A DNA stretch of 63,296 nt, filler included. It is 4 parts of 4 records of this genome, joined end to end, with 100 filler letters (N's around TTAATTAATTAA, not from the genome) between each part and the next. Parts side by side here need not be neighbours in the genome. Positions count along the whole stretch, not along the records: positions 16,704 to 34,738 come from DRR378314_815; 3 more parts are not named here. One strand, 5' to 3'. Position numbers and translations under genes: made by a program. The first letter of the stretch is position 1. Each line of letters opens with the position of its first letter. The notes under the pieces are model-generated. The model was not told where the DNA came from. It made no database searches and saw only the letters and a program-made list of their open reading frames with translations. Of this stretch, positions 19,325 to 43,449 are shown piece after piece.

Positions 19325-19345
19325 GAATTCGGGATGATGAATATC

Positions 19346-21121: not shown

Positions 21122-21178
21122 GTCTTCGGTTTAACTCCAGTTAAAAATATTCAGCAGTCTACATTTATGCTTTTTTCC

Positions 21179-22104: not shown

Positions 22105-22109
22105 TTTCT

Positions 22110-23093
22110 TTATGTTCTTTCAAAATACGCGCGGTACCATTCGACGAATTTCGGGATACCGGTTTCAAGCCGTGTTGCCGGCTCATACCCCACCGCTTTT
22201 CGAAGCGGATCAATATCGGCAAAAGTCTCTTTCACATCGCCCTTTTGCATCGGCAGAAGGTCCAGGTCGGCTTTGACGCCCAGTGACTTTTCCAATACCG
22301 CGACCAACTCCATCAGCGGCTCAGGGCGATTATTACCAATATTATAGACGATATAAGGGGGATGTCCTTCACCACCATCTTCTGGAATATGCTTTACCAG
22401 CTTCATGATCCCGCTGACAATATCATCGATATAGGTAAAGTCTCGCTTCATGTCGCCATTATTGAAAATTTTAATGGAGTTTCCTGCGAGCAAAGATTCA
22501 GTAAACATCCAATAGGCCATATCCGGCCGACCCCAGGGCCCATAAACTGTAAAGAACCGGAGCCCGGTAGTCGGAAATCGATAAAGATGGCTATAGCTAT
22601 GAGCCATGAGTTCATTGGATTTTTTGGTCGCAGCATATAAGGAAACGGGCTTATCCACCGATTGCGACACGGCATACGGCAGTTCCTTGTTACCGCCATA
22701 AACAGAACTGGAACTGGCGTAAAGCAAATGCTTCAGATGCGGATTATGACGGCAATATTCCAGAATATTGACAAATCCAACCAGGTTGGACTGCACATAG
22801 GAATGCGGATTTTCCAGGCTATACCGAACACCGGCTTGCGCCGCCAGATGGATAACATATTCAATTTTCTTATCTGCCAATGCCGCAGCTAGCGCGCTCT
22901 GATCTGCGATATCCACTTTCGCAAAGGTAAAATTATCGAATTTTGCCAGCTCTGTCAGGCGCGCCTTTTTCAGAGAGACATCATAATAGTCGGTCAAACA
23001 GTCAATACCGAAGACTGTTTCGCCTGCCTGCAGTAGCTGTTTGACGACATACATGCCGACAAAACCGGCGGCCCCTGTAACCAGATAAGTCAT
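22110..23093 (-). CDS. NAD-dependent epimerase, UDP-glucuronate 4-epimerase type
   Basis: TGAAGFVG, HLAAQAGVRYS, YASSSSVYG, YAATK, RFFTVYGPWGRPDMA. Confidence 0.92.
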   Translation of the reverse strand: MTYLVTGAAGFVGMYVVKQLLQAGETVFGIDCLTDYYDVSLKKARLTELAKFDNFTFAKVDIADQSALAAALADKKIEYVIHLAAQAGVRYSLENPHSYVQSNLVGFVNILEYCRHNPHLKHLLYASSSSVYGGNKELPYAVSQSVDKPVSLYAATKKSNELMAHSYSHLYRFPTTGLRFFTVYGPWGRPDMAYWMFTESLLAGNSIKIFNNGDMKRDFTYIDDIVSGIMKLVKHIPEDGGEGHPPYIVYNIGNNRPEPLMELVAVLEKSLGVKADLDLLPMQKGDVKETFADIDPLRKAVGYEPATRLETGIPKFVEWYRAYFERT

Positions 23094-23280
23094 CTATCCC
23101 GTATCCCTTTGAATTTTTTGGCACTCTAAACCAACTGATTTTTTATTGGACAGGAAAAAAGTTAAAAACCCCCTACGAAACATTCTTTCTATATGTCAGT
23201 ATTATTGACCTTTATTGAAAAGGCTGCTACATTCCTTATATTAAGTAATACAAATTTGCATGAGCTAGGGAGTAATAAGT

Positions 23281-26200
23281 ATGAAGCTTGCTGACGTAAC
23301 GCTCGACGATAAATATACGCTCGAACAGGGCCGCGTTTTCCTGACAGGTATTCAGGCGCTGGTCCGTCTTCCGCTCGTCCAGAAAGCCCGCGACCGGGCT
23401 GCAGGACTGAATACGGCAGGCTTCATCTCCGGGTATCGCGGCTCCCCTCTTGGTGGTTATGACCAAGCGCTGTGGAAGGTTCGCCCGCTCCTGAAAGAAA
23501 ACGACATCCATTTTGAACCTGGCATTAACGAGGACCTGGCCGCTACTGCCGTCTGGGGCAGTCAACAGCTCAACATGTATAAAGGCGCCAATTATGATGG
23601 CGTTTTCAGCTTGTGGTACGGCAAAGGGCCCGGTGTCGACAGAACCGGCGATGTCTTTCGTCATGCCAATTCCAATGGCACCTCAAAACATGGGGGCGTT
23701 CTTGCCCTTGCCGGTGACGATCACGGGATCGTCTCCTCCACCGTTGCCCACCAAAGCGAACATGGTTTCATGAGCTGGATGATGCCAGTACTGCATCCTG
23801 CCAATGTGCAGGAAGTGTTGGATTACGGCCTGATGGGGATTGCCATGTCTCGTTACTCGGGCCTTTGGGTTGGGTTCAAATGCATCTCTGAAACGATTGA
23901 GGGCGGCGCCTCCGTTTATGTGGATCCAAATCGGGTTAATATCAAGATCCCGGATTTACAATTGCCCCTCGGCGGGCTGAATATCCGCTCCCACGATAAC
24001 CGGTTCGATCAGGAAGTCCGCCTGACCCAACATAAGATCTATGCTGCCCGTGAATTTGCCAGACTGAACAAGCTGGATAAAATCACCATGGACAGCCCCA
24101 AACGCCGCTTTGGCATTGTAACCACCGGCAAAGCCTATCTGGATGTGCGTCAGGCCCTTCGTGATCTGGGCATCACCGATGAAATGGCCGCCGATATCGG
24201 CCTCAGTGTTTACAAGGTCGGCATGCCCTGGCCACTGGATCCGGAAGGGGTTCGAAGCTTTGCCGAAGGACTGGAAGAGGTTCTGGTGGTTGAGGAAAAA
24301 CGCGCCCTTGTGGAAAACCAGATGAAGGAGCAGCTCTATAACTGGCAAACCGGCGTGCGCCCGCGCATCATTGGCGAGTTTGATGATAAGGGTGCCCATA
24401 TTCTGCCATCTGCAGGGGAATTAACACCGGCTCTGGTTGCACGGGTTATTGCCGCCCGTATCCGCCGTTTTTATACATCAGAGCATATTGAAAACCGCCT
24501 GGCCTTTCTGGACCGCAAAGAAAAACAGCTCAATCAATCGCCTGCCAAAATCAACCGCACACCCTTTTATTGTTCCGGTTGTCCGCACAACACATCAACT
24601 GTCGTGCCAGAGGGAAGCCGCGCGGTTGCCGGCATCGGCTGTCACTATATGGTGACCTGGATGGACCGAAACACAACCGAATTCACCCAAATGGGCGGTG
24701 AAGGGGTTCCGTGGGTTGGTCAACAGCATTTCACCGACGAAAAACATATTTTCGCCAATCTGGGCGATGGCACCTATCATCACTCAGGCCTCCTCGCCAT
24801 TCGGCAGGCTATTGCCGCTAAGGCCAACATCACCTACAAGATTCTTTATAACGACGCGGTCGCCATGACCGGCGGTCAGCCCCTTGATGATCAACTCACC
24901 CCCTGGCAAATTGCCCAGCAGGTTGCCGGTGAAGGCGTAGCCACCATCAAAGTCGTATCGGACGAGCCGGACAAATATCCCTCTTCCATTGAATGGCCGA
25001 AGGGAACCACCTTTGATCACCGCGACGATTTGGATAAAATCCAGAAGGAAATGCGCGAACTTTCGGGTGTGACCATCCTTCTGTATGATCAGACCTGCGC
25101 TTCTGAAAAACGCCGCCGCCGCAAGCGGGGCAAATTCCCTGATCCGGCAAAACGGGTCATGATCAATGATCTTGTCTGTGAAGGCTGCGGCGACTGTTCG
25201 GTCAAATCCAACTGCATTTCCGTCGAGCCGCTGGAAACCGAATTTGGCCGTAAACGCACCATCAACCAGTCTTCGTGCAACAAAGATTATTCCTGCGTCA
25301 AAGGGTTCTGCCCAAGCTTCGTAACCATCGAAGGCGGCGACCTTCGCAAGCCGGAAAAAAGCGATAAGGCTGACCCGGCCTCAGACGTTCCCCTGCCCGC
25401 CTTGAAAGAGGTAACTCACCCTTACCGCATTCTGGTAACCGGAATTGGCGGCACAGGTGTGGTTACCATCGGCGCGTTGATGAGCATGGCCGCCCATCTG
25501 GAGGGCAAAGGCGTTACCGTATTGGATCAGGCCGGCCTCGCCCAGAAAGGTGGCGCGGTTACAAGCCATATCCATATCGCCCAGAAGCCTGAAGATATCA
25601 GCGCCGTTCGCATTCCAGCAGGCCGCGCTGACCTGCTGATCGGCTGCGATATGGTGGTTGCTGCCTCCTACGACTCGCTTGCCAAGCTGGATGTGGGCAT
25701 TGCCAAAGCCGTCGTGAACTCTCACCCGGCACCGACAATGGACTTCACCCTGAACCCGGATGCGCCGTTCCCAATTGCCGATACCCTCGCGCATATTGAG
25801 GATGCGGTCGGCAAAGAGGCCTGCTCCCTGATCGAGGCTAGCGACATTGCGACAACCCTGATGGGCGATGCCATTGCCACTAACCTCTTCATGCTGGGCT
25901 ATGCTTTCCAAAAAGGCTTTGTCCCGCTGAGCCGGGAATCGCTGGAACGGGCTATTGAGCTGAACGGGATCGCCATCGACGCCAACAAGCTTGCGTTTGC
26001 CTGGGGCCGACTGATGGCACATGATCCCGACAAAGTACTGGCTGAGGTTGAAAAGCTCAAAGGCCCTGACGACATCCTGCATCCGACTGAGGATCTACAA
26101 ACCATGATCGCCCGCCGATCAGAGTTCCTCACCGATTATCAAAACAAGGCTTATGCCGATAGCTATGCCAAGGTGATTGAAACCGTCCGCCTGACCAAGG

Positions 26201-26733
26201 ATAACAATTTGATCAAAGCATCGGTTAAATCCCTGTTTAAGTTGATGGCTTACAAAGATGAGTATGAGGTGGCCCGCCTGCATGCCGAAACAGGATTTAA
26301 GGACCGCATTGATCGGATGATGGCTGGCGATTACACGGTCAAATATCATCTGGCCCCACCGCTCTTTGCCAAAAAAGATCCAGAAACCGGTCACTTGAAA
26401 AAAGCGGAATATGGCCCCTGGGTTGGCAAGGCTTTCGCAAAGCTTGCTAAACTGAAAGGCTTGCGCGGCACCGCCTTTGATCCTTTCGGCTACACCCAGG
26501 AGCGAAAAGAGGAACGAAAACTCATCACCCATTTCAAGGGAACGCTGTCTTATGTGGCGGAGCATGTATCGGATCAGAACCGGGCCATCGCCCTTGAGCT
26601 TCTGGAACTGCCCATGAAAATCCGTGGATATGGTCATGTGAAGGAAAAAGCGATCGAGCAATATTATGCGGAACATGATCACCTGATGCAGCTTTTCAAC
26701 AATCCTACAGATGTCCAGAAAGCTGCTGAATAA
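23281..26733 (+). CDS. Indolepyruvate:ferredoxin oxidoreductase family protein (fused alpha/beta)
   Basis: SGYRGSPLGG, YCSGCPHN, GIGCH, NLGDGTY, CEGCGDC...C ferredoxin, GIGGTGV, YKDEYEVARL. Confidence 0.94.
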   Translation: MKLADVTLDDKYTLEQGRVFLTGIQALVRLPLVQKARDRAAGLNTAGFISGYRGSPLGGYDQALWKVRPLLKENDIHFEPGINEDLAATAVWGSQQLNMYKGANYDGVFSLWYGKGPGVDRTGDVFRHANSNGTSKHGGVLALAGDDHGIVSSTVAHQSEHGFMSWMMPVLHPANVQEVLDYGLMGIAMSRYSGLWVGFKCISETIEGGASVYVDPNRVNIKIPDLQLPLGGLNIRSHDNRFDQEVRLTQHKIYAAREFARLNKLDKITMDSPKRRFGIVTTGKAYLDVRQALRDLGITDEMAADIGLSVYKVGMPWPLDPEGVRSFAEGLEEVLVVEEKRALVENQMKEQLYNWQTGVRPRIIGEFDDKGAHILPSAGELTPALVARVIAARIRRFYTSEHIENRLAFLDRKEKQLNQSPAKINRTPFYCSGCPHNTSTVVPEGSRAVAGIGCHYMVTWMDRNTTEFTQMGGEGVPWVGQQHFTDEKHIFANLGDGTYHHSGLLAIRQAIAAKANITYKILYNDAVAMTGGQPLDDQLTPWQIAQQVAGEGVATIKVVSDEPDKYPSSIEWPKGTTFDHRDDLDKIQKEMRELSGVTILLYDQTCASEKRRRRKRGKFPDPAKRVMINDLVCEGCGDCSVKSNCISVEPLETEFGRKRTINQSSCNKDYSCVKGFCPSFVTIEGGDLRKPEKSDKADPASDVPLPALKEVTHPYRILVTGIGGTGVVTIGALMSMAAHLEGKGVTVLDQAGLAQKGGAVTSHIHIAQKPEDISAVRIPAGRADLLIGCDMVVAASYDSLAKLDVGIAKAVVNSHPAPTMDFTLNPDAPFPIADTLAHIEDAVGKEACSLIEASDIATTLMGDAIATNLFMLGYAFQKGFVPLSRESLERAIELNGIAIDANKLAFAWGRLMAHDPDKVLAEVEKLKGPDDILHPTEDLQTMIARRSEFLTDYQNKAYADSYAKVIETVRLTKDNNLIKASVKSLFKLMAYKDEYEVARLHAETGFKDRIDRMMAGDYTVKYHLAPPLFAKKDPETGHLKKAEYGPWVGKAFAKLAKLKGLRGTAFDPFGYTQERKEERKLITHFKGTLSYVAEHVSDQNRAIALELLELPMKIRGYGHVKEKAIEQYYAEHDHLMQLFNNPTDVQKAAE

Positions 26734-26753
26734 TCAGCATCACGACACCAATC

Positions 26754-26786
26754 GCCAATTGGTCCTTTAAAAGAGGATCAATTGGC
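26754..26786. terminator. Stem-loop after the IOR gene (probable terminator)
   Basis: GCCAATTGGTCCTTT-AAA-AGAGGATCAATTGGC inverted repeat; no clear T-tract. Confidence 0.5.
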
Positions 26787-26838
26787 CCTCGCCTTCCCAG
26801 CCAGAGTTCGGCATTTCTTGAGGTCAGGAGACCTCATC

Positions 26839-27051
26839 ATGCTAAAGCTGAAAGACAAATGCGAAACCTGCGCTGCGTCGTTGATCAATGGGCAGGCCGA
26901 TGCCTACATCTGCACCTTCGAATGCACGTTCTGCGCCCCCTGCACCCAGGAAACCCATCAGCAGACTTGCCCCAACTGCGGCGGCAATCTTCTATTGCGG
27001 CCAACCCGCCCAGATAAATTTAAAGCGAAATATCCTCAGGCGGAGGGGTAA
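26839..27051 (+). CDS. DUF1272 family Cys-rich (probably Zn-binding) protein
   Basis: CETC...ICTFECTFCAPC...CPNCGG...RPTR; AGGAG RBS before ATG 26839. Confidence 0.88.
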   Translation: MLKLKDKCETCAASLINGQADAYICTFECTFCAPCTQETHQQTCPNCGGNLLLRPTRPDKFKAKYPQAEG

Positions 27052-27331
27052 CTGAGGTTTGCCGCTTTTTTGTCTTTCGCTTTTTCTTGGCTGTTTTCAA
27101 GGCCGGATTGAGCCCGTCCAATAGCAACCGGATAAGGGTCGCCGTTTCCATATTCAATTCAATTTTATCAGGGCAATCTGTGGCGGTTTTTTCATGACGT
27201 TTGGCGGCTGCCTTTAGTAGCCGTTTCACATCCCGGTCATCCAGAATGTCTTTATGGACCAGCTCCTGCACCAGAAGCTCCACAATGGTCAGGGCCGCAA
27301 ATCCTGCTTTGTCTGCTGAAATCTGTCTCAT
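27020..27331 (-). CDS. Hypothetical helical protein with basic C-terminal tail
   Basis: 103-aa ORF with amphipathic helices and KKKRKTKKR; 3' end overlaps DUF1272 by 32 nt. Confidence 0.6.
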   Translation of the reverse strand: MRQISADKAGFAALTIVELLVQELVHKDILDDRDVKRLLKAAAKRHEKTATDCPDKIELNMETATLIRLLLDGLNPALKTAKKKRKTKKRQTSVTPPPEDISL

Positions 27332-27420
27332 GGTTCCCAGAAAAAAGGGCTGTGCAAACGGCTCACACAGTCAACTACACTTAATAAGTGCAAATTAGAA
27401 TTCAAGATCACCTATATATA

Positions 27421-28410
27421 TTAGGGATCTTTTTCGTCCTTTTCCGCTAATTTTGGCGACCAGCCGGGACGCCGAACCATATAGCCAATGCCCTGCCAAA
27501 AGGTTCGCGCCATGAAAAAATCCCGGAGAATTAGTCTATATTCATGGAAATTCACTTTCAGCGGGTTAATGGAATTCACCGGCTCTGTAATTCCAAAGAC
27601 CACGGGTTCCTCCTCCGCCTGATACGTGCCGAATATGCGATCCCAGACAATCAGAATTCCACCATAATTTTTATCCAGATAGCGGGGATTTGATCCGTGA
27701 TGAACCCGGTGAACTGATGGGGTATTCAAGACTTTATCCAGCCATCCCAGCTTGCCAATTTTCTGGGTATGGATCCATGTTTGATAACTGACGACAGTCG
27801 CGATGGCAATCAGGGTTTGACCGGCATCAAACCCCATCACGATCATGGGCACAAAGAACACCCATTCAAACGCCCCCTCGATCCACGAGAGCCGCAGCGC
27901 CGTCGTCAAATTAAATTCCGGGGAGGAATGATGCACACTGTGATAGGCCCACAGCAATCTGACCTCATGTTCAAAGCGGTGCATCCAGTAATAGGTGAAA
28001 TCCGCAACCAAAATAACGGCAATCCAGCTCCACCAGGTTATGGGAATTTGGGTAACAGAAAGTTTTTGAACGGCAAATAGTCCGATCACGAAAATAAGTC
28101 CAAACACAGTCTTCTCGACAATCAGGTTCCCGATTGCAATCAGGTAGTTGGCAGCTGTTTCACTGGGCTTTCGCCGTGTTTTAGCGACAAAATCCCAAAT
28201 GGTTTCACCGACAATCAGAAAAAGAAATAAAAGCCCCGCCCACTCCAGAATCTGAAAACTGATCTCAAAATTCAACAGATGCAGAGTGATCGGGTCAGTT
28301 TCGACATCTGTTTCAGCACCGAAGAAAAGCATATCCAAAGGCGCGAAAGTCAGCAGTAAAAACCCGCCGACCCCTAAAACAGCCAGTGCCCAATGACTTT
28401 GACGGATCAT
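27421..28410 (-). CDS. Fatty acid hydroxylase/sterol desaturase family protein, alkylglycerol monooxygenase-like
   Basis: His boxes YYWMHRFEHE, HSVHH, WIHT, HRVHHG; KNYGGILIVWDRIFGT. Confidence 0.9.
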   Translation of the reverse strand: MIRQSHWALAVLGVGGFLLLTFAPLDMLFFGAETDVETDPITLHLLNFEISFQILEWAGLLFLFLIVGETIWDFVAKTRRKPSETAANYLIAIGNLIVEKTVFGLIFVIGLFAVQKLSVTQIPITWWSWIAVILVADFTYYWMHRFEHEVRLLWAYHSVHHSSPEFNLTTALRLSWIEGAFEWVFFVPMIVMGFDAGQTLIAIATVVSYQTWIHTQKIGKLGWLDKVLNTPSVHRVHHGSNPRYLDKNYGGILIVWDRIFGTYQAEEEPVVFGITEPVNSINPLKVNFHEYRLILRDFFMARTFWQGIGYMVRRPGWSPKLAEKDEKDP

Positions 28411-28431
28411 TTTTCCTCCTTTATAATAATG

Positions 28432-28449
28432 AATGAACGTTCGTTCATT
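28432..28449. promoter_or_regulatory. Probable TetR operator
   Basis: Palindrome AATGAACG-TT-CGTTCATT in the 56-nt gap between the divergent hydroxylase and TetR genes. Confidence 0.75.
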
Positions 28450-28466
28450 TAATAAATAGGGAACTT

Positions 28467-29102
28467 ATGACAACTCCACAAGAGCCAACCCAAAAAAACC
28501 GTCGGCAAGCGGAAACCGATAAACGGCGTGCTTTTCTACTGGAAACGGCCATCACTGCGTTTATGGAGAAGGGTTACCACCAGACCGGTATCCGCGACAT
28601 TGCAAAGCGGGCAGGCGTCAGTCTTGGAAACCTGTATAACCATTTTCCCGGCAAAGAAGCGGTCCTGCTGGAGATTGCCCGCTTGGAGGCTGAGGAACTG
28701 ACAAAATTCTCGAACATTCTGGAAGGTACCGGCACCCCTGCGGCCCGGCTAAAAACCTTCGTCGGTGAATATCTGGCCTACTGTTGCCGCCCGGAAAATG
28801 TGTTATTGACCATTGAAATCACGTCGGAGGCCACGCGAAACCCCTCTGTCGGCGAAATCTATTCTGAAAACAGGCGCAGCTTTTTGACGGAGGTAACAGC
28901 TTGCCTGAATGCAGCCGCTGAGCAGCAGGAAATCTCTCCCCTCCCCCAGCCGGATAGAGTTGCCCATTACATCCTTTCGTTAACCGAAGCCGAAGGACAG
29001 CGAATTTGTTTTGAGGAGCGGAAATTCAACCAACAGGATGCGGCTCTCCTCTGGGCAATGATCTTTCAGGGCCTCAACGGTGACACATCGTCCACAACAT
29101 AA
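28467..29102 (+). CDS. TetR/AcrR family transcriptional regulator
   Basis: FMEKGYHQTGIRDIAKRAGVSLGNLYNHFPGKE HTH. Confidence 0.95.
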   Translation: MTTPQEPTQKNRRQAETDKRRAFLLETAITAFMEKGYHQTGIRDIAKRAGVSLGNLYNHFPGKEAVLLEIARLEAEELTKFSNILEGTGTPAARLKTFVGEYLAYCCRPENVLLTIEITSEATRNPSVGEIYSENRRSFLTEVTACLNAAAEQQEISPLPQPDRVAHYILSLTEAEGQRICFEERKFNQQDAALLWAMIFQGLNGDTSSTT

Positions 29103-29133
29103 AAAAAGCTGCGCAGCAATCTGCGCAGCTTTT
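29101..29133. terminator. Bidirectional Rho-independent terminator
   Basis: AAAAAAAGCTGCGCAG-CAAT-CTGCGCAGCTTTT between convergent genes. Confidence 0.88.
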
Positions 29134-29163
29134 CGTCTGGTTTATCCAAATTGCGGCTACGTC

Positions 29164-30480
29164 TTATTCAGCCGGAATTGCCGCCCAGTTTCCGTTCCGA
29201 TCCAGATATTTGGCGCCATCATCTGAATAAAACCGGCCCGTGCCGGCGTCTTTCAAGATTTTTAGCATGGCAGGCAGTTCTTTTTCGTCGGCTTCAAGTT
29301 TGGCAATGATCTTATCAGCGCCCAATTGATCGAGAAGTTCAAATGGCCCTTTGCCCCAACCGAAGCCCCAGCGCATTGCCCGGTCAATATTGACCACATC
29401 ATCGGCAATTTCCGGGATCAGATCTGCCGCATATAACAGCGTGCCACCCATGACATCCCAGACAAGCTGACCTTCCGCATCATCGGCAAAGAAAACCGTC
29501 TGCGGCGCCTGATGGTCACTGGAAAGCTCCACCGCTTGCACCGGCCGCCAGGTTTCAGTGGTCAGGTCGAAAATTTCTTTTGTCTTGCTTCCATCATCGG
29601 CAATATTCAGCCGATAAAAGCCGCCTTTGGCTTTGCGGCCAAGTTGCCCGCGTTCCAGCATCGCCTGCTCAGCCGCAGGAAAGCTTGTATAGGAAAGTCC
29701 AACGTCCCCATTGGGCAGGTTGGCCTTAAGGTTTTTACCGACCAGATCCATGATGTCCAGACCGATCAAATCAATCAGTCCGTAAAGACCGGTTGGCGGC
29801 AATCCGACGGGTTTACTAAGCAACGCATCCACTTTTTCCATAGGCATCCCGGCATCCAGCGCCGCTTTTGCTTTATGCAGGCCAGAAAGCATAAAGAAAC
29901 AACCGATCCGGTTGCCAATGAAATTAACTGTATCCTTGGCATAAACAACGCCCTTGCCCAGCTTTTCCCCACAGAACCGGGCCAACGCATCTGTCACATC
30001 CGGTGTGGTTTTCTCTCCGGGGATCAGCTCCATCAGACGCATGATTTTGACAGGATTGAAAAAATGGGTGACGACGATGTCTTTTTGAAGCCGTTCAGGC
30101 ATGTCAGCCGCGATATCCTTCAGTGGAATACCTGACGTGTTTGTGGACACGACTGATCCGTCCCGGCGCAACGGCTCCAGCTTGGCGAACAAGTCCCGCT
30201 TTGTTGCCAAATCTTCAACGATGGCCTCACAAATCCAGTCATAACCCTCTATTTTCGGCAGGTCATCGGAAAAACTACCTAGCTTGATCCGCTTGGCAGA
30301 ATCTGGATTTTCAAAGGCAGGCGGGCGAATATTGATCATGCGATCAAGGGAGGCCTCCGCCGCTTGCAGTGTCACATCCAACAACAGCACATCGGCCCCG
30401 GCATCAGCGGATGCCGCTGCAATTCCAAGCCCCATGGTACCGCCGCCCAGTACGGCAACTGATTTTACATCTCTGGTCAT
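29164..30480 (-). CDS. 3-hydroxyacyl-CoA dehydrogenase (FadN-like, no hydratase domain)
   Basis: GGGTMG, EAIVE, STNTSGIP, HFFNP, NFIGNRIG, IDRAMRWGFGW..GPFE. Confidence 0.92.
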   Translation of the reverse strand: MTRDVKSVAVLGGGTMGLGIAAASADAGADVLLLDVTLQAAEASLDRMINIRPPAFENPDSAKRIKLGSFSDDLPKIEGYDWICEAIVEDLATKRDLFAKLEPLRRDGSVVSTNTSGIPLKDIAADMPERLQKDIVVTHFFNPVKIMRLMELIPGEKTTPDVTDALARFCGEKLGKGVVYAKDTVNFIGNRIGCFFMLSGLHKAKAALDAGMPMEKVDALLSKPVGLPPTGLYGLIDLIGLDIMDLVGKNLKANLPNGDVGLSYTSFPAAEQAMLERGQLGRKAKGGFYRLNIADDGSKTKEIFDLTTETWRPVQAVELSSDHQAPQTVFFADDAEGQLVWDVMGGTLLYAADLIPEIADDVVNIDRAMRWGFGWGKGPFELLDQLGADKIIAKLEADEKELPAMLKILKDAGTGRFYSDDGAKYLDRNGNWAAIPAE

Positions 30481-30559
30481 ATTGCGTCCTCATCAACAGA
30501 ATGACCTGAGTTACCATTTGCAGCGCATTTGATAAACCGCAAAAGCGGCTTTGCGACAT

Positions 30560-30589
30560 AAAAAAAGGCGGCCCCATCACTGGACCGCC
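30560..30589 (-). terminator. Terminator after the 135-aa gene
   Basis: GGCGGTCCA-GTGA-TGGGGCCGCC stem followed by T7 on the minus strand. Confidence 0.8.
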
Positions 30590-30621
30590 CGTTTCGGTTA
30601 TGCAGGTTGCAACAGCTGCGT

Positions 30622-31029
30622 CTAGACTTCTGCTTCCAGTGTCATGGCAAAGTCCTTGATCACTTCTTCGGTAATTCTGGAGTTTGGGAAAACCTCAGAC
30701 ACCTTGGCGTGAATTTCCGCAGGGGATAACCCGTCGCGATAATTCTCAATAATCAGATTCTGGATTTTCTCCCGCTGAGGCTTGGTCCTGGCGACCGCGA
30801 TGCGAACCGCCGCATCTTTAGCTTCAAGGAGCTTTTGCAGAGCAATCATCTTCTGGGAATGATCGGGAAGCTGCTCGACTAGCGAATGCGCCAGCTTATT
30901 GAACGGCATGCTGATATTCTGCAATCCTTCGGGCAAATGCTTATAGTCAAAGAAACACAACATATCTTCATACTGGGCCCGGGCTAGGATGGCCTGGCGC
31001 TTTGCTATTCCTTCAGTCTTCTGACTCAT
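30622..31029 (-). CDS. Hypothetical protein: phage-type helical hairpin (Acb2/Tad1-like pattern) fused to an HTH-like tail
   Basis: FFDYKHLPEGLQNISMPFNKLA...LP...KMIALQKLLEAKDAAVR followed by GLSPAEIHAKVSEVFPNSRITEEVI; GGAG RBS; own terminator. Confidence 0.75.
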   Translation of the reverse strand: MSQKTEGIAKRQAILARAQYEDMLCFFDYKHLPEGLQNISMPFNKLAHSLVEQLPDHSQKMIALQKLLEAKDAAVRIAVARTKPQREKIQNLIIENYRDGLSPAEIHAKVSEVFPNSRITEEVIKDFAMTLEAEV

Positions 31030-31148
31030 GACTATCTCTCCGCATTCTTGGGGGCATTGGTCTGGACTTCCGTAAAAAGTCCGTCTTACAAAAGCCAGAA
31101 TAACGCCTAAAAGTTACCTAAAAGTTTAACAAAACGTAAAAATTCTGG

Positions 31149-31163
31149 TTAATATTCCGTTAA
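31149..31163 (-). promoter_or_regulatory. CtrA box upstream of the 135-aa gene
   Basis: Minus strand TTAA-CGGAATA-TTAA(C), full consensus; degenerate copies at 31126-31140 and 31107-31121. Confidence 0.65.
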
Positions 31164-31173
31164 GACCAGATAC

Positions 31174-31202
31174 AAAAAAACCGGGCAAGAGACCTGCCCG
31201 GC
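31174..31202 (-). terminator. Terminator after fbaA
   Basis: CCGGGCAGG-TCT-CTTGCCCGG stem followed by T7 on the minus strand. Confidence 0.85.
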
Positions 31203-31229
31203 TTTGAATAACATTCTGAAATTTCAGCG

Positions 31230-32300
31230 TTATTTTGCGATTGATTTACCGGTTGAGCCAAGCTCCCGGAAGGCCTGACCCAGACGCTCAATCATTTTAT
31301 CTTCACCCATCCGCAACCATTTACGGGGATCATACAGCTTCTTGAGTGGCTCTTCTGTTTCCGGATGGATCTGATGTTCAAACGCCACCATGTTTTCTTT
31401 CACAAAGGCGCCAACCCCTTCAGCAAATGCAAACTGGGTGTCAGTATCAATATTCATTTTGAAGACGCCATATTCGATGGCTTCTGAAATTTTCTGCGGC
31501 TCAGAACCGGATCCACCGTGAAACACCAGATCCAAAGGTTTGTCCGACAGGGAGTGGGTCTTTGATACCAGCTCCTGTGAGGCTTTAAGGATTTCTGGAC
31601 GCAATTTCACATTACCCGGTTTATAAACCCCGTGCACATTTCCAAAAGACGCTGCGATCGAGAAATGACCAATTGGGTTCAGGCGATCATACGCCTCCAG
31701 AACATCTTCAGGCTGGGTGTAAAGTTTGCTGTTATCCATGCTGTCGATATCACTACCGACACCATCTTCTTCACCGCCTGTAATGCCCAGTTCAATCTCG
31801 ATGCTCATATCCAGCTCGACTGCCCGCTTCAGGAGCCGTGCAGATTCGCTCAGATTGTCATCAAGGGATTCTTCTGACAAATCCACCATGTGAGAGGTAA
31901 ATAGCGGAATACCGTTTTTCTTCTTATAGTCCGCACCTGCATCAAACAGCCGATCTACCCAGGGGATCAGTTTGCGGTTTGCATGGTCTGTGTGAAGAAT
32001 GGCGCAAATGCCATAATGCTTGGCCAGAAGATGCACATGCTGGGCAGCCGCGACCGCCCCATAAAGCATCGCATCATCGCTATTGGGCATGCCTTTTCCG
32101 GCGTAGAAAGTTGCGCCGCCGTTGGACAACTGGATGATCACATCCGATCCGTTTTTGGCAGCCGCTTCCATGACCGCATTGATACTGTCGGTACCGACTA
32201 CATTGACAGCCGGAAGCGCAAAGCCACCCGCCTTACAGTTACTCACCAGTTTCTGGTATTCCTCACCAAAAACGACACCTGCTGGAAGTTGTAGAGACAC
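31230..32300 (-). CDS. fbaA: Class II fructose-bisphosphate aldolase (E. coli FbaA type)
   Basis: LHTDHA, EIELGITGGEEDG, SFGNVHGVYKPG, VFHGGSGS, KMNIDTD, YDPRKWLR; GTG start at 32300 after GAGGA. Confidence 0.95.
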   Translation of the reverse strand: MSLQLPAGVVFGEEYQKLVSNCKAGGFALPAVNVVGTDSINAVMEAAAKNGSDVIIQLSNGGATFYAGKGMPNSDDAMLYGAVAAAQHVHLLAKHYGICAILHTDHANRKLIPWVDRLFDAGADYKKKNGIPLFTSHMVDLSEESLDDNLSESARLLKRAVELDMSIEIELGITGGEEDGVGSDIDSMDNSKLYTQPEDVLEAYDRLNPIGHFSIAASFGNVHGVYKPGNVKLRPEILKASQELVSKTHSLSDKPLDLVFHGGSGSEPQKISEAIEYGVFKMNIDTDTQFAFAEGVGAFVKENMVAFEHQIHPETEEPLKKLYDPRKWLRMGEDKMIERLGQAFRELGSTGKSIAK

Positions 32301-32568
32301 GGTTCTAATCCTCACTCGTTCTTCAGGAAACGCCCAGCCGTCGGCCGGGAGACCCCAATTCAGTTAAACCTAACTTCAAATCGAAAAGCTGTCTTTCGGT
32401 AAACTTGTTCCGAACGATCCAGACACCGTCATCAGGTAACCGGCCGATTTGGCGAACCTGGCGATGTATCAGGGTCTATTTTCAGGCAAGTGTCTAAGCC
32501 AACAGGCTCACCCCCAACCAGAAGACATTCTCTTCACTTAAATTGCCAGAACTCTATAAACCGTCTTG

Positions 32569-32673
32569 GGGTTCCTATCAAGTTCGGATCACGCGGATCG
32601 AGCGACACCTTGATCCGCAGCGCTGTTTTCAACCAGTTATGCCAGGCCATCGTGGTGAGTTGAATTAAGACCC
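32569..32673. repeat. Possible miniature inverted-repeat element (about 105 bp)
   Basis: Imperfect terminal inverted repeats GGGTTCCTATCAA / TTGAATTAAGACCC and internal hairpin GCGGATCGAG-CGACAC-CTTGATCCGC. Confidence 0.3.
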
Positions 32674-32675
32674 GT

Positions 32676-33455
32676 TCATGTCCCTTGAAATTGAGCGGCT
32701 CGTTGCTCCAAAAAGGCGCGGGGCCCCTCCTTCGCATCAAAACCTGTTTTAAGCTCCTGATTAACTTCAATTTCTTCTCGAAACCTGGCTTCGAAGGCCG
32801 CTTCATCATTGCCATCCACCAATCTGCGGGCTTCGACCAATGCCCGTGTCGGGCCTTTGGCCAAGCGCTTCGCAAAAGAGAGACTTTCCGCCATCAACTC
32901 ATCGGGCTCATAAACCCTGTTGACGATCCCCCACTCCGCCGCGGCTTGCGCCGAAATCGGATCGTTACTCATAATATATTCCAGTGCCCGAAATCGGCCG
33001 ATTATCCGGGGCAACAGATATGTCGATCCCAGATCCGGGCTTAGGCCAATCCGGCTGAAGACCTGAATAAACTTCGCGGTTGAGGCGGCAAAAATCACAT
33101 CTGCGGTTAAAGCCAGTGAAAAACCACCCCCCGCAGCGGTGCCGTTTACCGCTGCAACTACGGGCACCCGGCAACTTCGAATGCCCTGAAAAGCCTTATG
33201 GTAACAATCCATGATTTGGCCAACAACATCATCACCCGCCGGCCGACTTCTCAAATCCTGCCCAGAGCAAAACCCCCGTCCAGCCCCGGTTAAAATCAGG
33301 CAGCAAATTGTCGGCTCCTGTTCAATACGTGCCAGCACCTCCTGAACTTCATACATCATATCAAAAGTCAGCGCATTTAACGTTTCAGGCTTGGTTAGCT
33401 GCAATACGCCCACGCCCTCATCAACAGTGAAGGAAATACTTGAGAAATTCGTCAT
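32676..33455 (-). CDS. Enoyl-CoA hydratase/isomerase (PaaG-like)
   Basis: GRGFCSGQDL, AVNGTAAGGG, FSRIGLSPDLG, EGPRAFLEQR. Confidence 0.93.
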   Translation of the reverse strand: MTNFSSISFTVDEGVGVLQLTKPETLNALTFDMMYEVQEVLARIEQEPTICCLILTGAGRGFCSGQDLRSRPAGDDVVGQIMDCYHKAFQGIRSCRVPVVAAVNGTAAGGGFSLALTADVIFAASTAKFIQVFSRIGLSPDLGSTYLLPRIIGRFRALEYIMSNDPISAQAAAEWGIVNRVYEPDELMAESLSFAKRLAKGPTRALVEARRLVDGNDEAAFEARFREEIEVNQELKTGFDAKEGPRAFLEQRAAQFQGT

Positions 33456-33486
33456 ATCAGCCTCTTTTTAAATGAGTTTACGTGGT

Positions 33487-34674
33487 TTACTTTTGACCTT
33501 GGCTCGCCAGAATTTCGGCAATCTCCGCATCTGAACATCCGACTTCCTGTAATATTTCTGCCGTATGCTCTCCCAGACCGGGGGGCAGCCGCCGAATGGT
33601 TGATGGGGTTTGGGAAAAGCGGGTTGGCGGATCCGTCATTCTCAGTGCACCTTCCGTCGGATGATCGGCAATATGCCAAAACCCGGATGCTGCCAGTTGT
33701 TCATCTTCCAACAACTCTTCCTTACTCAGGACCCGCTGAACCGGTATACTCGCCGCTCTCAAGCTTTGCTCCCACGCATCACTGGTGCGGGTTGCAACAA
33801 TTTCCTCCAGCAACCCATATATTTCTTCCGAATACTCAACGCGGGTGGAATGATCAGCAAACCGAGGATCCTTTTGCAGATCATCACGCCCGGCAATCTC
33901 CAGAAAATCCCGCCAGTTTTGATCTGTGTAGGGCAACACGGCCAGATAACCATCCAATGTGGCATATGGTTTGCGCATAGTGTTCAGAAGACGCCGATAG
34001 CCCATTTTGTCGATCGGTGGATCAAAACAGGCGCCGTTCAGATGCTCCACCATGACAAAGTCTACCAGACTTTCAAACATGGGAACTTCAATCGCTTGAC
34101 CACCTGCCCCTTTTTCACGGGCAAAGAGCGCCCCCAGAATTCCCGACACCACATGAAAGGCCGATGTTTTGTCCGCCATCACCGTCGGGACATATCTTGG
34201 CTGATCTGAAGAGATCGTCTGCAGGTCCGCAATCCCGCTGGCCGCCTGTATGATATCGTCGTAAGCAGGATCATTGGCCCTGGGACCTGATTTTCGATAG
34301 CCATAAGTTGCACAATAAATCAGATCTGGAAATTGACTGTGGATCTGCTCATATTCCAGTTCCAGCTTCTGCATGACCCGCGGCCGAAAATTATGCACCA
34401 GAACATCCGCCGTAGCGAGAATACGAAACAACGAAGCCCGTCCGGCCTCTGAGGTCAGATCAAGCGCCACGCTCCGTTTATTGCGGTTGATCGACAGATA
34501 AAGCGACGCCATTGCCGGATTTCGCCGGGGGCCGGCATGCCGGGTCGTATCCCCCTGCAGGGTTTCAACCTTGATGACATCCGCCCCCATATCCCCGAGC
34601 ATCTGGGTCGCCCAAGGCCCCAGGACGACTGTTGTTAAATCAACAACTCTAACACCTGATAGACATCCCTGCAT
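33487..34674 (-). CDS. CaiB/BaiF family (class III) CoA transferase
   Basis: LSGVRVVDLT, LGDMGADVIKVE, NRNKRS, HNFRP, PAYDDIIQA, PPGLGEHT. Confidence 0.94.
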   Translation of the reverse strand: MQGCLSGVRVVDLTTVVLGPWATQMLGDMGADVIKVETLQGDTTRHAGPRRNPAMASLYLSINRNKRSVALDLTSEAGRASLFRILATADVLVHNFRPRVMQKLELEYEQIHSQFPDLIYCATYGYRKSGPRANDPAYDDIIQAASGIADLQTISSDQPRYVPTVMADKTSAFHVVSGILGALFAREKGAGGQAIEVPMFESLVDFVMVEHLNGACFDPPIDKMGYRRLLNTMRKPYATLDGYLAVLPYTDQNWRDFLEIAGRDDLQKDPRFADHSTRVEYSEEIYGLLEEIVATRTSDAWEQSLRAASIPVQRVLSKEELLEDEQLAASGFWHIADHPTEGALRMTDPPTRFSQTPSTIRRLPPGLGEHTAEILQEVGCSDAEIAEILASQGQK

Positions 34675-34738
34675 TTCATCCCCCTTGTTATTTTTTGTCG
34701 CCAGCCCTTTTTTTTCAGCCGCGTTTAGCGATCTGCTC

Positions 34739-34838
34739 NNNNNNNNNNNNNNNNNNNNNNNNNNNNNNNNNNNNNNNNNNNNTTAATTAATTAANNNNNN
34801 NNNNNNNNNNNNNNNNNNNNNNNNNNNNNNNNNNNNNN
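34739..34838. other. Artificial contig spacer
   Basis: N-run with TTAATTAATTAA linker. Confidence 0.99.
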
Positions 34839-35223
34839 TCATGTCGTTGTCGATCGCCTGCTTGCCGGTCAGAACCAGACCGGGCTGCTCTTCGTCAACA
34901 ATCGCCTTGAGGATCTTGGCCACAGCCAGGGGTTCGATGTCGTTATGTACATCGTCAGTGGCGACAACAAGGATCGCACGATCCGCACCCATCGCCAAAG
35001 CGGTCCGCAGGGTTTCCTGCGACTGTTTGACACCGATGGAAACCACGACGATTTCATCAACCTGCCCGGCCTCTTTCAGACGGATCGCCTGTTCGACGGA
35101 AATTTCGTCAAACGGGTTCATCGACATTTTTACGTTGGCAAGATCAACACCCGATCCGTCCGCTTTGACGCGCACTTTCACGTTGTAATCAATCACGCGT
35201 TTGACAGGTACAAGCACCTTCAT
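34839..35223 (-). CDS. etfB: Electron transfer flavoprotein beta subunit, 3'-truncated
   Basis: [37 protein letters not shown]. Confidence 0.97.
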
Positions 35224-35378
35224 GAGCGTTCTCTCCTTGGTTACTGCGCGCCCTGTTTGGCCGCGCGATTCAATTCTCTTGAGCAGGTTTAGCGAAAGCA
35301 CTTGCGGCGAAACAGGGAAAAATCGTCCTTTATCGACCTAAGAACGCCGCGTTTCCGGGTGTTAGCGCTGTCAACCTC

Positions 35379-35951
35379 TCAGCGGTTCGCCCCCGGCACC
35401 CAAAGCACATCATCCTTGCCGCCATTGTTCGACATCCGGGCCGCGACAAAGAACCAATCACTCAGCCGATTCAGGTATTTCACAGCCGCCGGGTTGATCT
35501 CTTCCTGTTCTGCCAAAAGCACGGCCAGCCGTTCCGCGCGCCGTGCCACGGTGCGGCAGACATGCAGATGGGCAGCCAGCGCGGTGCCGCCGGGCAGGAT
35601 AAAACTGCGCAGCGGATCAAGGCTGGTGTTCATCACGTCAATCTCGGCTTCCAGCCGGTCAACCTGTGCGCTTGCCAATCGCAGGGGCGGATATTCCGCA
35701 TCCTTGTCCGCCGCCATATCAGGGCGGCACAGGTCCGCGCCCAGATCAAACAGATCATTTTGAATGCGCGAAAGGGCGGCATCGGTTTCCCCGGTTGCTT
35801 CCAATCGGGCCACCCCGACAAAGCAGTTCAATTCATCCGAGGTGCCATAGGCTTCTACCCGCGCATTATATTTCGCCACGCGGTCCCCGTTGCCAAGCGC
35901 GGTTGTGCCGCTGTCACCGGTGCGCGTGTAGATCTTGTTCAGGACAACCAT
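35379..35951 (-). CDS. PduO-type cob(I)alamin adenosyltransferase
   Basis: KIYTRTGDSGTT, YGTSDELN, FILPGG, RTVARRAER, YLNRLSD. Confidence 0.95.
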   Translation of the reverse strand: MVVLNKIYTRTGDSGTTALGNGDRVAKYNARVEAYGTSDELNCFVGVARLEATGETDAALSRIQNDLFDLGADLCRPDMAADKDAEYPPLRLASAQVDRLEAEIDVMNTSLDPLRSFILPGGTALAAHLHVCRTVARRAERLAVLLAEQEEINPAAVKYLNRLSDWFFVAARMSNNGGKDDVLWVPGANR

Positions 35952-36157
35952 CAGCCAAATCCTCCGCGCAGCCAGACAAAGCCGACAATCAACAACACGG
36001 CAACAAACTGGGCACCGATCCGATAGCGCATCAACTTGTTGGCGTTCTTTTTGTTAAAGGCCCCGCCACCGGCAAATCCACCCAGACCGATCATCAAAAT
36101 GATGGCAACGGCACAGACCGCCAGTAGCAGAATAATAAACAGCGGATCATCAGTCAT
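35951..36157 (-). CDS. Twin transmembrane helix small protein (HIG1-like)
   Basis: TM-GGAFNKKNANKLMRYRIGAQ-TM. Confidence 0.88.
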   Translation of the reverse strand: MTDDPLFIILLLAVCAVAIILMIGLGGFAGGGAFNKKNANKLMRYRIGAQFVAVLLIVGFVWLRGGFG

Positions 36158-36218
36158 CGGGCATCCCTTCGGCTTGTCCTGAAAGATGTAGCCGGTGAAG
36201 CGCACAACGCAAGGCTTG

Positions 36219-37058
36219 TCAGCGGCTCAATACCCAATCCAGGGCACGGGTGGGCAGGATACGGCGCAGCATACCAGACAGATAGGTCGGCAGTGTGACG
36301 TAATAGCGCGGGCGGGGCCGGGGGCTTTCAACCGCGTGGATCAGCCGTTTGGTAACGGCGTCAGGGGGCAGCTCGAAGCGGTCCGGCCCGGATGATTCGT
36401 AGAGCCGTTTCAACAGGGAGCGCTGATATTGCTCTGCACGGGCAGAGTTTTTCCAATCCACCCAGCGTTCAAAATGCGGAATCGAATTGACCCTGATCTT
36501 TGAGGTCACCGGTCCGGGTTCAATCAGACAGATATGCACACCGGTCCCGCGCATTTCGATGCGCAACGTGTCGGTCAGCCCCTCAAGCGCAAATTTGGTG
36601 GCGTTATAGGCACCACGCCACGGCATGGTGACAAACCCCAAAACGGAAGAACATTGCACAATGCGCCCACCGCCCTGTGCCCGCATCACTGGAATCACCG
36701 CGCGGGTCAGGCTGTGCCAGCCGAAAAAGTTGCTCTCGAAAATCGCGCGCAGGGCATCTGTCGGCAAATCCTCAACCGCGCCGGGCAAACCATGTGCACC
36801 GTTGTTGAACAACGCATCCAAAGTGCCACCGGTCGCTTTCAATACCTCGGCCAATGCGCTCTGAATTGTCGCTTCATCCGTGTAATCCAGCAGCGGGGCC
36901 TCGAACCCTTCTTCTTTCAATCTTGCGCAATCTTCGGGTTTGCGACAGGCGGCAAACACCCGCCAGCCCTGTGCGCGCATGCCATGGGCCGCGTCATAAC
37001 CGATGCCGCTGGAGCAGCCAGTGATCAGGATCGACTTTGCAGGGGGGACGTCAGACAT
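36219..37058 (-). CDS. Short-chain dehydrogenase/reductase
   Basis: TGCSSGIG, NNGA, YNATK. Confidence 0.93.
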   Translation of the reverse strand: MSDVPPAKSILITGCSSGIGYDAAHGMRAQGWRVFAACRKPEDCARLKEEGFEAPLLDYTDEATIQSALAEVLKATGGTLDALFNNGAHGLPGAVEDLPTDALRAIFESNFFGWHSLTRAVIPVMRAQGGGRIVQCSSVLGFVTMPWRGAYNATKFALEGLTDTLRIEMRGTGVHICLIEPGPVTSKIRVNSIPHFERWVDWKNSARAEQYQRSLLKRLYESSGPDRFELPPDAVTKRLIHAVESPRPRPRYYVTLPTYLSGMLRRILPTRALDWVLSR

Positions 37059-37115
37059 GAAAAAAGCCTCCGGTTGGGAAGGCTTTCATCGCGTGCAATG
37101 CTCTGGATGGCAAGT

Positions 37116-37742
37116 TCAGCCGCTGGTCAGCAGGAAATCCGCCATCCAACCGCCGGTGCCGCCGTCAAGTGGCTGAAACCGGACCCAGCCATTGCCGTCG
37201 TCCTGAATGATCTTCACCTGATCACCCTGCACCAGCCGCGAGACCACGCCAAAATCCGTGCCCGGTCCGCCGCGCACATTCACGCGGTTGCCGGTTACGG
37301 TGCGAATATCCTCAGAGCTGCCCGCGTCTGTGCCGCGCAGATCGGATACGCCGTCTGTCGGGTCAATCAGGCTGGGGATGATCGCCGGTGTATCAGCGGA
37401 AGAGGTCACAAGGCTGGCATTCTGCGGCACGAGTTCAGCGTCAGTTGCGGCAAAGCCGCTATCGCTCTCTGTCGCGACATCACCCAGAGATGTCAGGTTC
37501 AGCGACACCCGCGTCACGCCATTGTCCAGAGGCGGGTCTGTGTCCACCACAGGTTTTGGGGCGGCGGCAACCACAACTGGTTCAGGCTGGGTATAGATCT
37601 TTTTCTGGGTAACGACGGGGGCCGGTTCAGCCGCTTCAAGCCGCGCCTGTTTAATCGCGCTGGCATCAAAATCAGACCCCCCACTCATTTCATAGAAGGT
37701 CCAGCCCAAAAAGCCGAACGAAACCAAAATAAACCTTACCAT
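37116..37742 (-). CDS. Bacterial SH3 domain protein with N-terminal membrane anchor
   Basis: FYEMSGGSDF; C-terminal VNVRGGPGT...GW...GWMADFL. Confidence 0.88.
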   Translation of the reverse strand: MVRFILVSFGFLGWTFYEMSGGSDFDASAIKQARLEAAEPAPVVTQKKIYTQPEPVVVAAAPKPVVDTDPPLDNGVTRVSLNLTSLGDVATESDSGFAATDAELVPQNASLVTSSADTPAIIPSLIDPTDGVSDLRGTDAGSSEDIRTVTGNRVNVRGGPGTDFGVVSRLVQGDQVKIIQDDGNGWVRFQPLDGGTGGWMADFLLTSG

Positions 37743-37937
37743 CGTTACATCCCCGAGAATCTTCGTGTCACAAGCATAACACGTATTGCAGCTAAATGGT
37801 TCAATACCGCGTAAAATTCCTGAGTGCGCGGGGGAAACGACAAAAACTTCTCCCCCGTGGCATCTGTGCCGCGCTGCGGTGAACTTTGGCCAAACGACCG
37901 CTTGCTGTGGCTCGAAGGCGCCGCTACAAAACCTGCC

Positions 37938-40256: not shown

Positions 40257-40267
40257 TCGCTGCGCTG

Positions 40268-43430: not shown

Positions 43431-43449
43431 CGCCCGCGTTGAAACACGC

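Follow-up and report, generated by a model that had tools for sequence, protein, structure and literature searches.

Results

A phage-family domain joined to a predicted helix-turn-helix-type tail

The stretch of DNA analysed here (the window; 63,296 nucleotides, filler included) carries on its minus strand, at 30622..31029, a complete coding sequence (CDS) with an ATG start that encodes 135 amino acids (aa) followed by a stop codon. The encoded protein, P0001, joins a helical hairpin domain (N-domain), which belongs to the phage protein family described by PHROG 1761 and PHROG 5120, to a C-terminal tail whose predicted fold is of the helix-turn-helix (HTH) type, and its gene is characteristic of bacteria of the genus Sneathiella. 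The residues read in a first-pass annotation made from the sequence alone (26-76 and 86-126) translate as quoted there, and its proposal that a phage-type helical module is fused to an HTH-type fold is supported by the PHROG matches and by the modelled three-helix fold of the tail, which superimposes on mariner HTHs.

Residues 18-82 of P0001 match phrog_1761 (E 6.5e-24, on positions 77-141 of a 148-position profile) and residues 22-84 match phrog_5120 (E 2.1e-14, positions 13-75 of 79), both annotated as function unknown, and tblastn located the domain in 282 phage records, none of which covers the tail; the resemblance of the first motif to short phage proteins, proposed earlier, is thus confirmed quantitatively. 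The AF2 model of the whole protein (predicted local distance difference test score, pLDDT, 89.4) places helices at residues 2-27, 34-53, 58-98, 103-113 and 121-134, and the N-domain would comprise the end of helix 1, the loop H31-L32-P33, helix 34-53, a loop with P55 and the first half of helix 58-98. Searches with P0001 itself against Pfam, NCBIfam and PDB sequences gave nothing significant (no PDB match below E 0.3), the one match in PADLOC was weak (E 0.025) and was disregarded, and the ESM Atlas returned no usable match.

The phage family is large. An exhaustive search of 1.84 billion cluster representatives returned 3,243 at E<=0.001, just one of which, a Sneathiella-type protein, matches over the full length; the identity of the N-domain to the family representatives is 40-60%. 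These 3,243 clusters (at 50% identity) have hosts among the Proteobacteria, Actinobacteria and Cyanobacteria; phage hosts include Vibrio, Erwinia, Acinetobacter and Gordonia, and roseophages and a Microcystis phage are also represented. The top match in BFVD is A0A023NHU2 of Dinoroseobacter phage DFL12phi1 (TM 0.86). Among the matches listed, all 40 rows carry a hypothetical or uncharacterised annotation, and a literature search on the names PHROG 1761 and PHROG 5120 found no paper. Conservation defines a clear signature: F27, H31, L32, P33, L36, S40, F43, A47, P55 and L64, together with K66, L67, L68, E69, K71, D72, A74, V75 and R76, are at least 93% conserved in 149 representatives, and every signature residue is present in P0001. 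The position of the gene in phage genomes varies, from a site between the small and large terminase genes to the minor tail genes or a nucleotide-metabolism block.

Most members of the family are small, 83 of the 149 representatives being 100 aa or shorter (median length 95 aa); Sulfitobacter phage EE36phi1 gp29 and Gordonia phage Morrissey gp20 are further examples of the family. Unlike P0001, the phage proteins of PHROG 1761/5120 consist of the single domain or are fused to Sequestin or zinc ribbons; the HTH-type tail is confined to the Sneathiella clade, where the gene is chromosomal, single-copy and syntenic. A search with residues 15-85 for longer fused forms returned none at E<=0.001, which is weak evidence. 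Two members, P0093 (145 aa) and P0094 (146 aa), are tandem duplications with two copies of the N-domain per chain, a hint that the domain works as a dimer. A two-copy complex prediction for self-association scored 0.29 against a mark of 0.32, which gives no answer and weighs neither way.

Orthologs and selective constraint

A homolog search of 5.8 billion proteins yielded 125 candidates, 91 of them at E<=0.001, and these include 18 full-length homologs of P0001 (133-142 aa, 49-90% identity), among them proteins of Sneathiella limimaris, S. aquimaris and an unclassified alphaproteobacterium. In the resulting 19-protein alignment residues 18-80 are nearly invariant and R11 is invariant; the tail is more variable, yet R86, I93, G100, I106 and P115 are kept. 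Synonymous sites are saturated in nine of the 12 N-domain pairs and in eight of the 12 tail pairs, and the ratios quoted come from the remaining pairs: omega (dN/dS) is 0.005-0.063 for the N-domain (three pairs) and 0.033-0.264 for the tail (four pairs), with a dN that is 2-12 times higher in the tail than in the N-domain. Because the tail has an omega well under 1 and keeps conserved residues in 19 orthologs, it is not a non-conserved read-through extension, the objection that the first-pass annotation had raised against its own proposal.

The gene is intact at all eight sequenced loci. A scan with one genome per prokaryotic species found seven loci, every one in Sneathiella or close kin, and a profile search of five Sneathiella genomes found exactly one copy in each. 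The gene is thus real, chromosomal and vertically inherited in Sneathiella. A search of sequencing runs listed two metagenome runs with small shares (0.21 and 0.12) and no RNA run.

Fold and charge of the tail, and the region upstream

Folded alone (eight orthologs), the tail retains its three predicted helices (pLDDT 83.5), and two structure aligners place the model on mariner-type HTHs and on a phage small-terminase HTH: SETMAR (7s03; score 7.6-7.7, probability 0.84, TMq 0.70), Mos1 (3hos/4u7b; 7.3-7.5, TMq 0.74, root-mean-square deviation 1.2 A) and the G20c small terminase (4xvn; 6.9-7.4, probability 0.57). Sequence identity to these mariner/Tc1 and small-terminase HTHs is 11-21%, with Foldseek E-values that are not significant, and the tail differs from the HTH of mariner/Tc1 transposases in being the C-terminal domain of a protein that is not a transposase. 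The DNA-binding domain of GcrA (5yiv/5yiu), a small alphaproteobacterial regulator, comes lower in the ranking than the mariner HTHs, and by sequence P0001 matches no family of such regulators. No HTH family in Pfam or NCBIfam is matched by P0001 at the sequence level, and the PDB profile search returned no HTH protein; HTH_SB was matched below threshold in two of 92 family members (E 0.0031).

In the DNA-binding domains of the mariner and small-terminase type, the recognition helix is basic or polar. The tail of P0001 is acidic in all 19 orthologs (net charge -1 to -4, isoelectric point (pI) 4.7-6.1), and the net charge of its third helix is -3 to -6 in every one of them, which speaks against ordinary major-groove recognition and weakens the earlier suggestion that the hairpin is wired to DNA binding. 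On the modelled structures, the tail would be an HTH-derived three-helix domain of the mariner/small-terminase type that has lost its basic recognition surface.

Upstream of the gene, invariant columns cluster in a block (Table 1) that contains two or three TTTAG-type direct repeats spaced by about 11 nucleotides (nt) in four of four clade-1 loci (clade 1 being the one whose gene order mirrors the window); in L012, L013 and L014 the corresponding block lies about 75-120 nt upstream of the gene. This block may act as a promoter, or a response-regulator-type protein may bind there. Separately, 134 nt before the ATG there is an exact TTAA-N7-TTAA, whose spacing is that of a CtrA box; the window holds three such motifs (0.23 expected). 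The exact motif is found upstream of none of the seven orthologs, and the idea of a CtrA box at this position was dropped; a one-mismatch form, TTTA-N7-TTAA, recurs in three of four clade-1 loci, but such sites arise easily by chance in AT-rich spacers.

P0001 could in principle be an ordinary small transcription factor, the HTH binding an operator, possibly the TTTAG repeats, and the N-domain serving as a mere dimerisation or oligomerisation module. The best structural matches of the tail, and most of the lower-ranking ones too, are indeed DNA-binding HTHs; the upstream repeats are conserved; the Sneathiella N-domain is basic (pI 8.9-10.1); and the tandem-duplicated family members suggest self-association. 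We nevertheless consider this explanation unlikely, although it keeps more ground than the other alternatives. The acidity of the tail and of its third helix holds without exception among the orthologs, no Pfam HTH model reaches its cut-off, and constraint is much stronger on the N-domain than on the tail, which is unusual for a mere dimerisation module. Moreover, the N-domain occurs alone, without a DNA-binding part, in thousands of phage proteins.

Fusions with the phage sponge Sequestin

When 50 family members of at least 120 aa were compared with Pfam, the single recurrent partner above cut-off was PF21825, fused to the N-domain in four of the 50 (53-63 bits; cut-off 24.8), in one of them ahead of the N-domain and in the other three behind it. 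Partners seen once each in the same 50 are a HAD hydrolase and CxxCxxCC and, below their cut-offs, a rubredoxin-like domain and zinc ribbons. A comparison of the N-domain with PF21825 gave an hhalign score of 11.5 over six columns (null 9.4 +/- 1.9), and at the level of sequence PF21825 is a distinct domain rather than a divergent copy of the N-domain. Sequestin and the N-domain phage proteins are alike in being short, and Sequestin is alpha-helical; P0001 itself has no PF21825 domain, the fusion being a trait of the phage family.

PF21825 was named "Sequestin" in a preprint that reports that 10 of 13 members inhibit type I Thoeris through sequestration of 3' cyclic ADP-ribose (3'cADPR), that sponge domains are often fused together, the criterion by which Sequestin itself was discovered, and that phage sponges are short (often <100 aa) homo-oligomers with positive pockets between protomers (10.1101/2025.07.12.664507). 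A fusion search based on Pfam could not have found the N-domain, because the N-domain has no Pfam model. The members of PHROG 1761/5120 are short phage proteins, some of them fused to a known sponge (P0001 itself has 135 aa and is host-encoded), and since the same kind of fusion led to Sequestin, the family is by analogy a candidate for counter-defence, as a sponge-like ligand-binding module. A sponge-like origin of the N-domain is plausible on this evidence, which is suggestive rather than conclusive. The tandem-duplicated members and the polar residues that are at least 93% conserved among phages with unrelated hosts point the same way, as does the faint Acb2/Tad1 similarity described below.

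The first-pass annotation went further and envisaged a sensor of immune messengers or a buffer against autoimmunity. Co-occurrence, for which Thoeris genes were not searched, adds nothing to this idea: just one of the five Sneathiella genomes has a CD-NTase (SMODS) domain (Table 1), whose gene may belong to a CBASS locus, whereas the gene for P0001 is present in all five, and a gene so constant is unlikely to serve a defence so variable.

Comparison with the Acb2/Tad1 hairpin

The annotation had also recognised in the last helix of the first motif an echo of the Acb2/Tad1 hairpin (PF24729). The gathering cut-off of this family is 27 bits, and the positive control, T4 Vs.4 (PDB 7uq2), scored 71.4 bits; P0001 has no PF24729 match even at E<=10, which argues against its membership. 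Matches below threshold occur within the phage family, in 10 of 92 members (best E 0.0023) and in seven of 149 (best E 0.0015), but the unrelated Occludin_ELL family is matched equally well by 13 of the 149, so these matches stand at the level of helical noise. Family profiles searched against PDB sequences retrieved no Acb2 or Tad1 chain.

Profile-to-profile comparison with hhalign does pick up a faint resemblance, confined to the loop and second helix, and to that extent the echo is real. Against 35 T4-like and five alphaproteobacterial PF24729 proteins the E-value is 0.0034 (probability 9.5%, score 20.1, 37 columns), and against the five alphaproteobacterial proteins alone it is 0.0086 (probability 4.7%, score 18.2); reversed templates score 11.5 and 13.2, and the real score was reached by two of 150 and none of 150 shuffles, respectively. 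The local alignment spans the loop and the second helix only. The label Acb2/Tad1 hairpin is carried by seven of the 50 highest-ranking BFVD rows (E 0.6-2.4).

PMC10312549 defines Acb2 by an interlocked hexamer, nucleotide binding and two pockets, one with Y11 and K26 and one with R67 and T74; in PaMx33 Acb2, Y11 (pi-stacking) and K26 (salt bridge) are the Tyr and Lys of the cyclic-dinucleotide pocket. Y8 and K23 are invariant in the T4-like Acb2 alignment. In a low-confidence global hhalign alignment the Acb2 Tyr falls on Y29, which is 81% conserved in the phage family, the Lys position falls on S40 (97% Ser), and the 'MW' pair of Acb2 falls on 'DA'; the alignment is too weak in this part for the Tyr-Lys pocket to be called absent. 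The N-domain shares with Acb2/Tad1 the form of a short phage helical hairpin and a loop followed by a helix of the type A-x-x-K-L-x-E-A-x-x-x-A-x-R-A; unlike Acb2, the PHROG 1761/5120 family has its own invariant set (H31, P33, S40, F43, K66, E69, K71, D72 and R76). On these sequence comparisons the N-domain would be at most a remote sister family of the Acb2/Tad1 hairpin, and not a member.

The full model put forward earlier, an Acb2/Tad1-type sponge hairpin wired to a DNA-binding HTH and acting as a cyclic-nucleotide sensor or autoimmunity buffer, is accordingly improbable in our view. It is consistent with a hairpin similarity that is faint yet above the nulls, with the placement of Y29 on the Acb2 Tyr in an alignment of low confidence, with the fusion of the family to the sponge Sequestin, and with the mariner-type fold modelled for the tail, to which HTH_SB adds its sub-threshold matches. 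It is at odds with the PF24729 result and its Occludin_ELL counterpart, with the lack of Acb2 or Tad1 chains in the PDB profile search, with the Ser and 'DA' found where Acb2 has its Lys and 'MW', with the acidic third helix of all the orthologs, and with the scarcity of CD-NTase relative to the gene. In addition, the accessible text of a paper on the diversity of these proteins contains no occurrence of HTH or 'fused' (10.1101/2025.08.24.671296). A preprint on D29 gp53-gp52 is tangential, PF24729 being mentioned there only for inserted Tad1-like cassettes.

Genuine PF24729 domains above the cut-off were seen in five of 401 sampled alphaproteobacterial genomes (L030-L034; G156, G361, G040, G089 and G217), where they presumably lie in prophages.

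Genomic context in two Sneathiella clades

In the window the gene is monocistronic, as had been claimed: it has its own ribosome-binding site (RBS), whose core GGAGA is invariant in the alignment of four of four clade-1 orthologous loci, it is flanked by two terminator-like hairpins, and Pfam identifies its neighbours as fbaA and a 3-hydroxyacyl-CoA dehydrogenase (3HCDH) gene (Table 1). The 18 neighbouring open reading frames (ORFs) scanned (19.3-43.4 kb) all have metabolic or housekeeping functions, with no phage-like gene among them, which agrees with the earlier statement that no phage genes lie nearby.

Three of the seven loci (clade 1; 74-80% identity) mirror the block seen in the window, with the order fbaA, gene, 3HCDH, POR, epimerase, thioesterase, PepF, pntA. 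At the other four loci (50-53% identity), which form a second clade, the gene lies directly after an ATPase gene, fliI. In the second-clade locus L015 this ATPase is FliI (TIGR03498, 654 bits), and an ORF of 138 aa that begins 8 nt downstream of the ortholog bears a weak resemblance to FliJ (TIGR02473, full-length coverage at E 0.0075 but short of the cut-off). The gene next to fliI on the opposite strand encodes CtrA (NF045991, 420 bits; cut-off 350), and a 606-aa ORF further along has no family match. In clade-1 genomes the FliJ-like 138-aa ORF directly follows fliI (25 nt apart in L026), and the gene is therefore not an obligatory part of the operon. Since the clades differ in the place of the gene, it has moved once between the two sites. 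That one Sneathiella clade carries the gene next to ctrA and flagellar genes recalls the small alphaproteobacterial regulators of the cell cycle and motility, such as SciP, which has a minimal helical domain of DNA-binding type.

This context raises the question of whether P0001 is an accessory of flagellar export or assembly, chaperone- or adaptor-like and acting with FliI/FliJ, the phage similarity then being ancient or incidental. The protein is small and all-helical, its gene directly follows fliI at four of the seven loci, and in L015 the FliJ-like ORF follows closely within a che/ctrA/flhF/flhA cluster. However, in the window and at the three clade-1 loci the gene is monocistronic, between metabolic genes and with its own terminators, and the FliJ-like ORF of clade 1 directly follows fliI without it; the family occurs in phages of non-flagellar contexts and of Actinobacteria, and P0001 matches no flagellar family in Pfam or NCBIfam. 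We regard such a role as less probable than either a transcription factor or an Acb2/Tad1-type sensor. A decaying prophage remnant or an annotation artefact without host function, which the phage-type N-domain and the differing position of the gene in the two clades might suggest, is close to refuted by the intact, single-copy state of the gene in five of five genomes, by the eight intact loci with omega well below 1, by the conserved RBS and upstream block and by the absence of phage genes among the 18 neighbouring ORFs.

In the draft genome of S. glossodoripedis, pepF matches fall in three successive frames (L012 17876-19643) and fliI matches in two (L026 1-1475); these splits look like frameshifts due to sequencing errors and not pseudogenes.

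Origin of the block carrying the gene

The window is composite. Compared with the nearest genome, G001, over positions 1-60000, it shows 99% identity at 1-16603 and at 34839-43648 and 98% at 43749-60000; in G001 these three blocks lie far apart from one another, whereas the 18-kb block with the gene (16604-34838) has no counterpart there. In 2-kb bins, the GC content of this block is 48-52% (eight of the nine), while most bins of the flanks have 54-60%. Rho of the left flank is 99% identical to G001 and 79% to Sneathiella; the proteins of the block are 80-91% identical overall to those of Sneathiella (FbaA 82-91%, 3HCDH 80-82%, POR 81-88%). The left edge of the block cuts pntB, and the right edge runs through an ETF ORF (Table 1); cut genes of this kind look like what contig ends would produce. 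The simplest reading of these sequence comparisons is that contigs from two organisms were joined in the window, the gene being that of a Sneathiella-like genome; alternatively, the mosaic may be a chimeric bin. The gene is present in none of 41 relatives of G001, a result due to the composite window, whose flanks are of another lineage, and not to gene loss.

Table 1. Features of the gene for P0001 and of its surroundings. Positions refer to the window unless a locus or genome is named.
Feature	Position	Strand	Remarks
CDS of P0001	30622..31029	-	complete
N-terminal helix start, residues 1-17	30979..31029	-	specific to Sneathiella proteins; phage homologs mostly align from about residue 17-23
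Phage-family helical hairpin domain, residues 18-82	30784..30978	-	phrog_1761, phrog_5120, conservation
Predicted tri-helical HTH-type acidic tail, residues 83-135	30625..30783	-	helices at about 84-98, 103-113, 121-134
RBS, GGAGAG	31036..31041	-	6 nt upstream of ATG
Conserved upstream block, candidate promoter or operator	31100..31143	-	invariant columns clustered, four clade-1 loci
TTAA-N7-TTAA	31149-31163		dropped as CtrA box
Terminator-like hairpin of upstream gene fbaA	31177..31205	-	13 pairs, then T run
Terminator-like hairpin directly after CDS	30566..30590	-	9 pairs (7 G-C), then T run
Class-II fructose-bisphosphate aldolase (fbaA)	31230-32315		neighbour upstream of the gene; Pfam
3-hydroxyacyl-CoA dehydrogenase (3HCDH)	29164-30480		neighbour downstream of the gene; Pfam
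pntB, cut at left block edge	16656-17483	-	Pfam profile positions 2-254 of 456 only
ETF ORF, 172 aa, straddling 34838/34839	34783-35301	-	right block edge
Gene order around the ortholog in L015	L015 5471-16735		cheB, cheR, ctrA (opposite strand), fliI, ortholog, FliJ-like ORF, 606-aa ORF, flhG-like, flhF, flhA
CD-NTase (SMODS) domain gene	G042:C12:606512-607000		open frame 461 aa

Discussion

Based on the family, conservation and context evidence presented here, the explanation that we favour, with somewhat less than even confidence, is that P0001 consists of a domesticated phage accessory domain, possibly of the sponge type, followed by a degenerate HTH that is likelier to contact a protein than to read DNA, with a tentative link to the CtrA-flagellar programme. 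We infer from this that the hairpin domain would self-associate and would bind a universal ligand or partner shared with the phage proteins, for which a nucleotide-type small molecule is the most plausible candidate; that the acidic HTH-like tail would be an output domain that contacts a protein partner without reading DNA sequence; and that the Sneathiella protein may feed into motility control.

Several points weigh against this explanation. Only one of the two clades shows the fliI context, and the gene might simply have inserted there at a neutral site. DNA could still be bound through another surface even though the third helix is acidic. As for the sponge type, the comparison of the N-domain with a T4-only Acb2 profile is not significant (E 0.073-0.2), the hhalign probability of the better comparisons is only 5-10%, and the column-shuffle null ignores helical periodicity. 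The Sequestin argument is one of guilt by fusion, drawn from four proteins, and the partners that occur once (HAD hydrolase, CxxCxxCC, rubredoxin-like domain, zinc ribbons) would suit a function on nucleic acids or some other function equally well. Nor is a basic charge a constant trait of the short family members: their median pI is 6.7, and of the 83, 30 lie above 7.5 and 35 below 6.5. The varying positions of the genes in phage genomes are not diagnostic. Finally, the N-domain family may be among the 124 candidates tested in the Sequestin preprint, with a result that was either positive or negative (10.1101/2025.07.12.664507).

A bolder form of the explanation is that PHROG 1761/5120 constitutes a new family of phage sponges domesticated as a receptor in Sneathiella, which would bind a nucleotide messenger, immune or housekeeping (e.g. 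cyclic diguanylate, c-di-GMP), and whose tail would relay the signal to the CtrA/flagellar machinery. We see a slim chance for it; if it were true, it would be the first instance of a host signalling protein derived from a phage sponge fold. The probability left over by the favoured explanation and its rivals goes to functions not named here.

The N-domain family ranks among the larger uncharacterised families of phage proteins and offers a concrete and cheaply testable candidate for counter-defence. In Sneathiella, the sequence evidence suggests that the host has tamed a phage counter-defence module: a strongly constrained single-copy gene maintained across a genus would, if this is true, be a rare kind of case in which an accessory module of phages has been taken over by the host. 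Should the domain bind a nucleotide signal, the Sneathiella protein would show what role such a module plays once it is owned by the cell.

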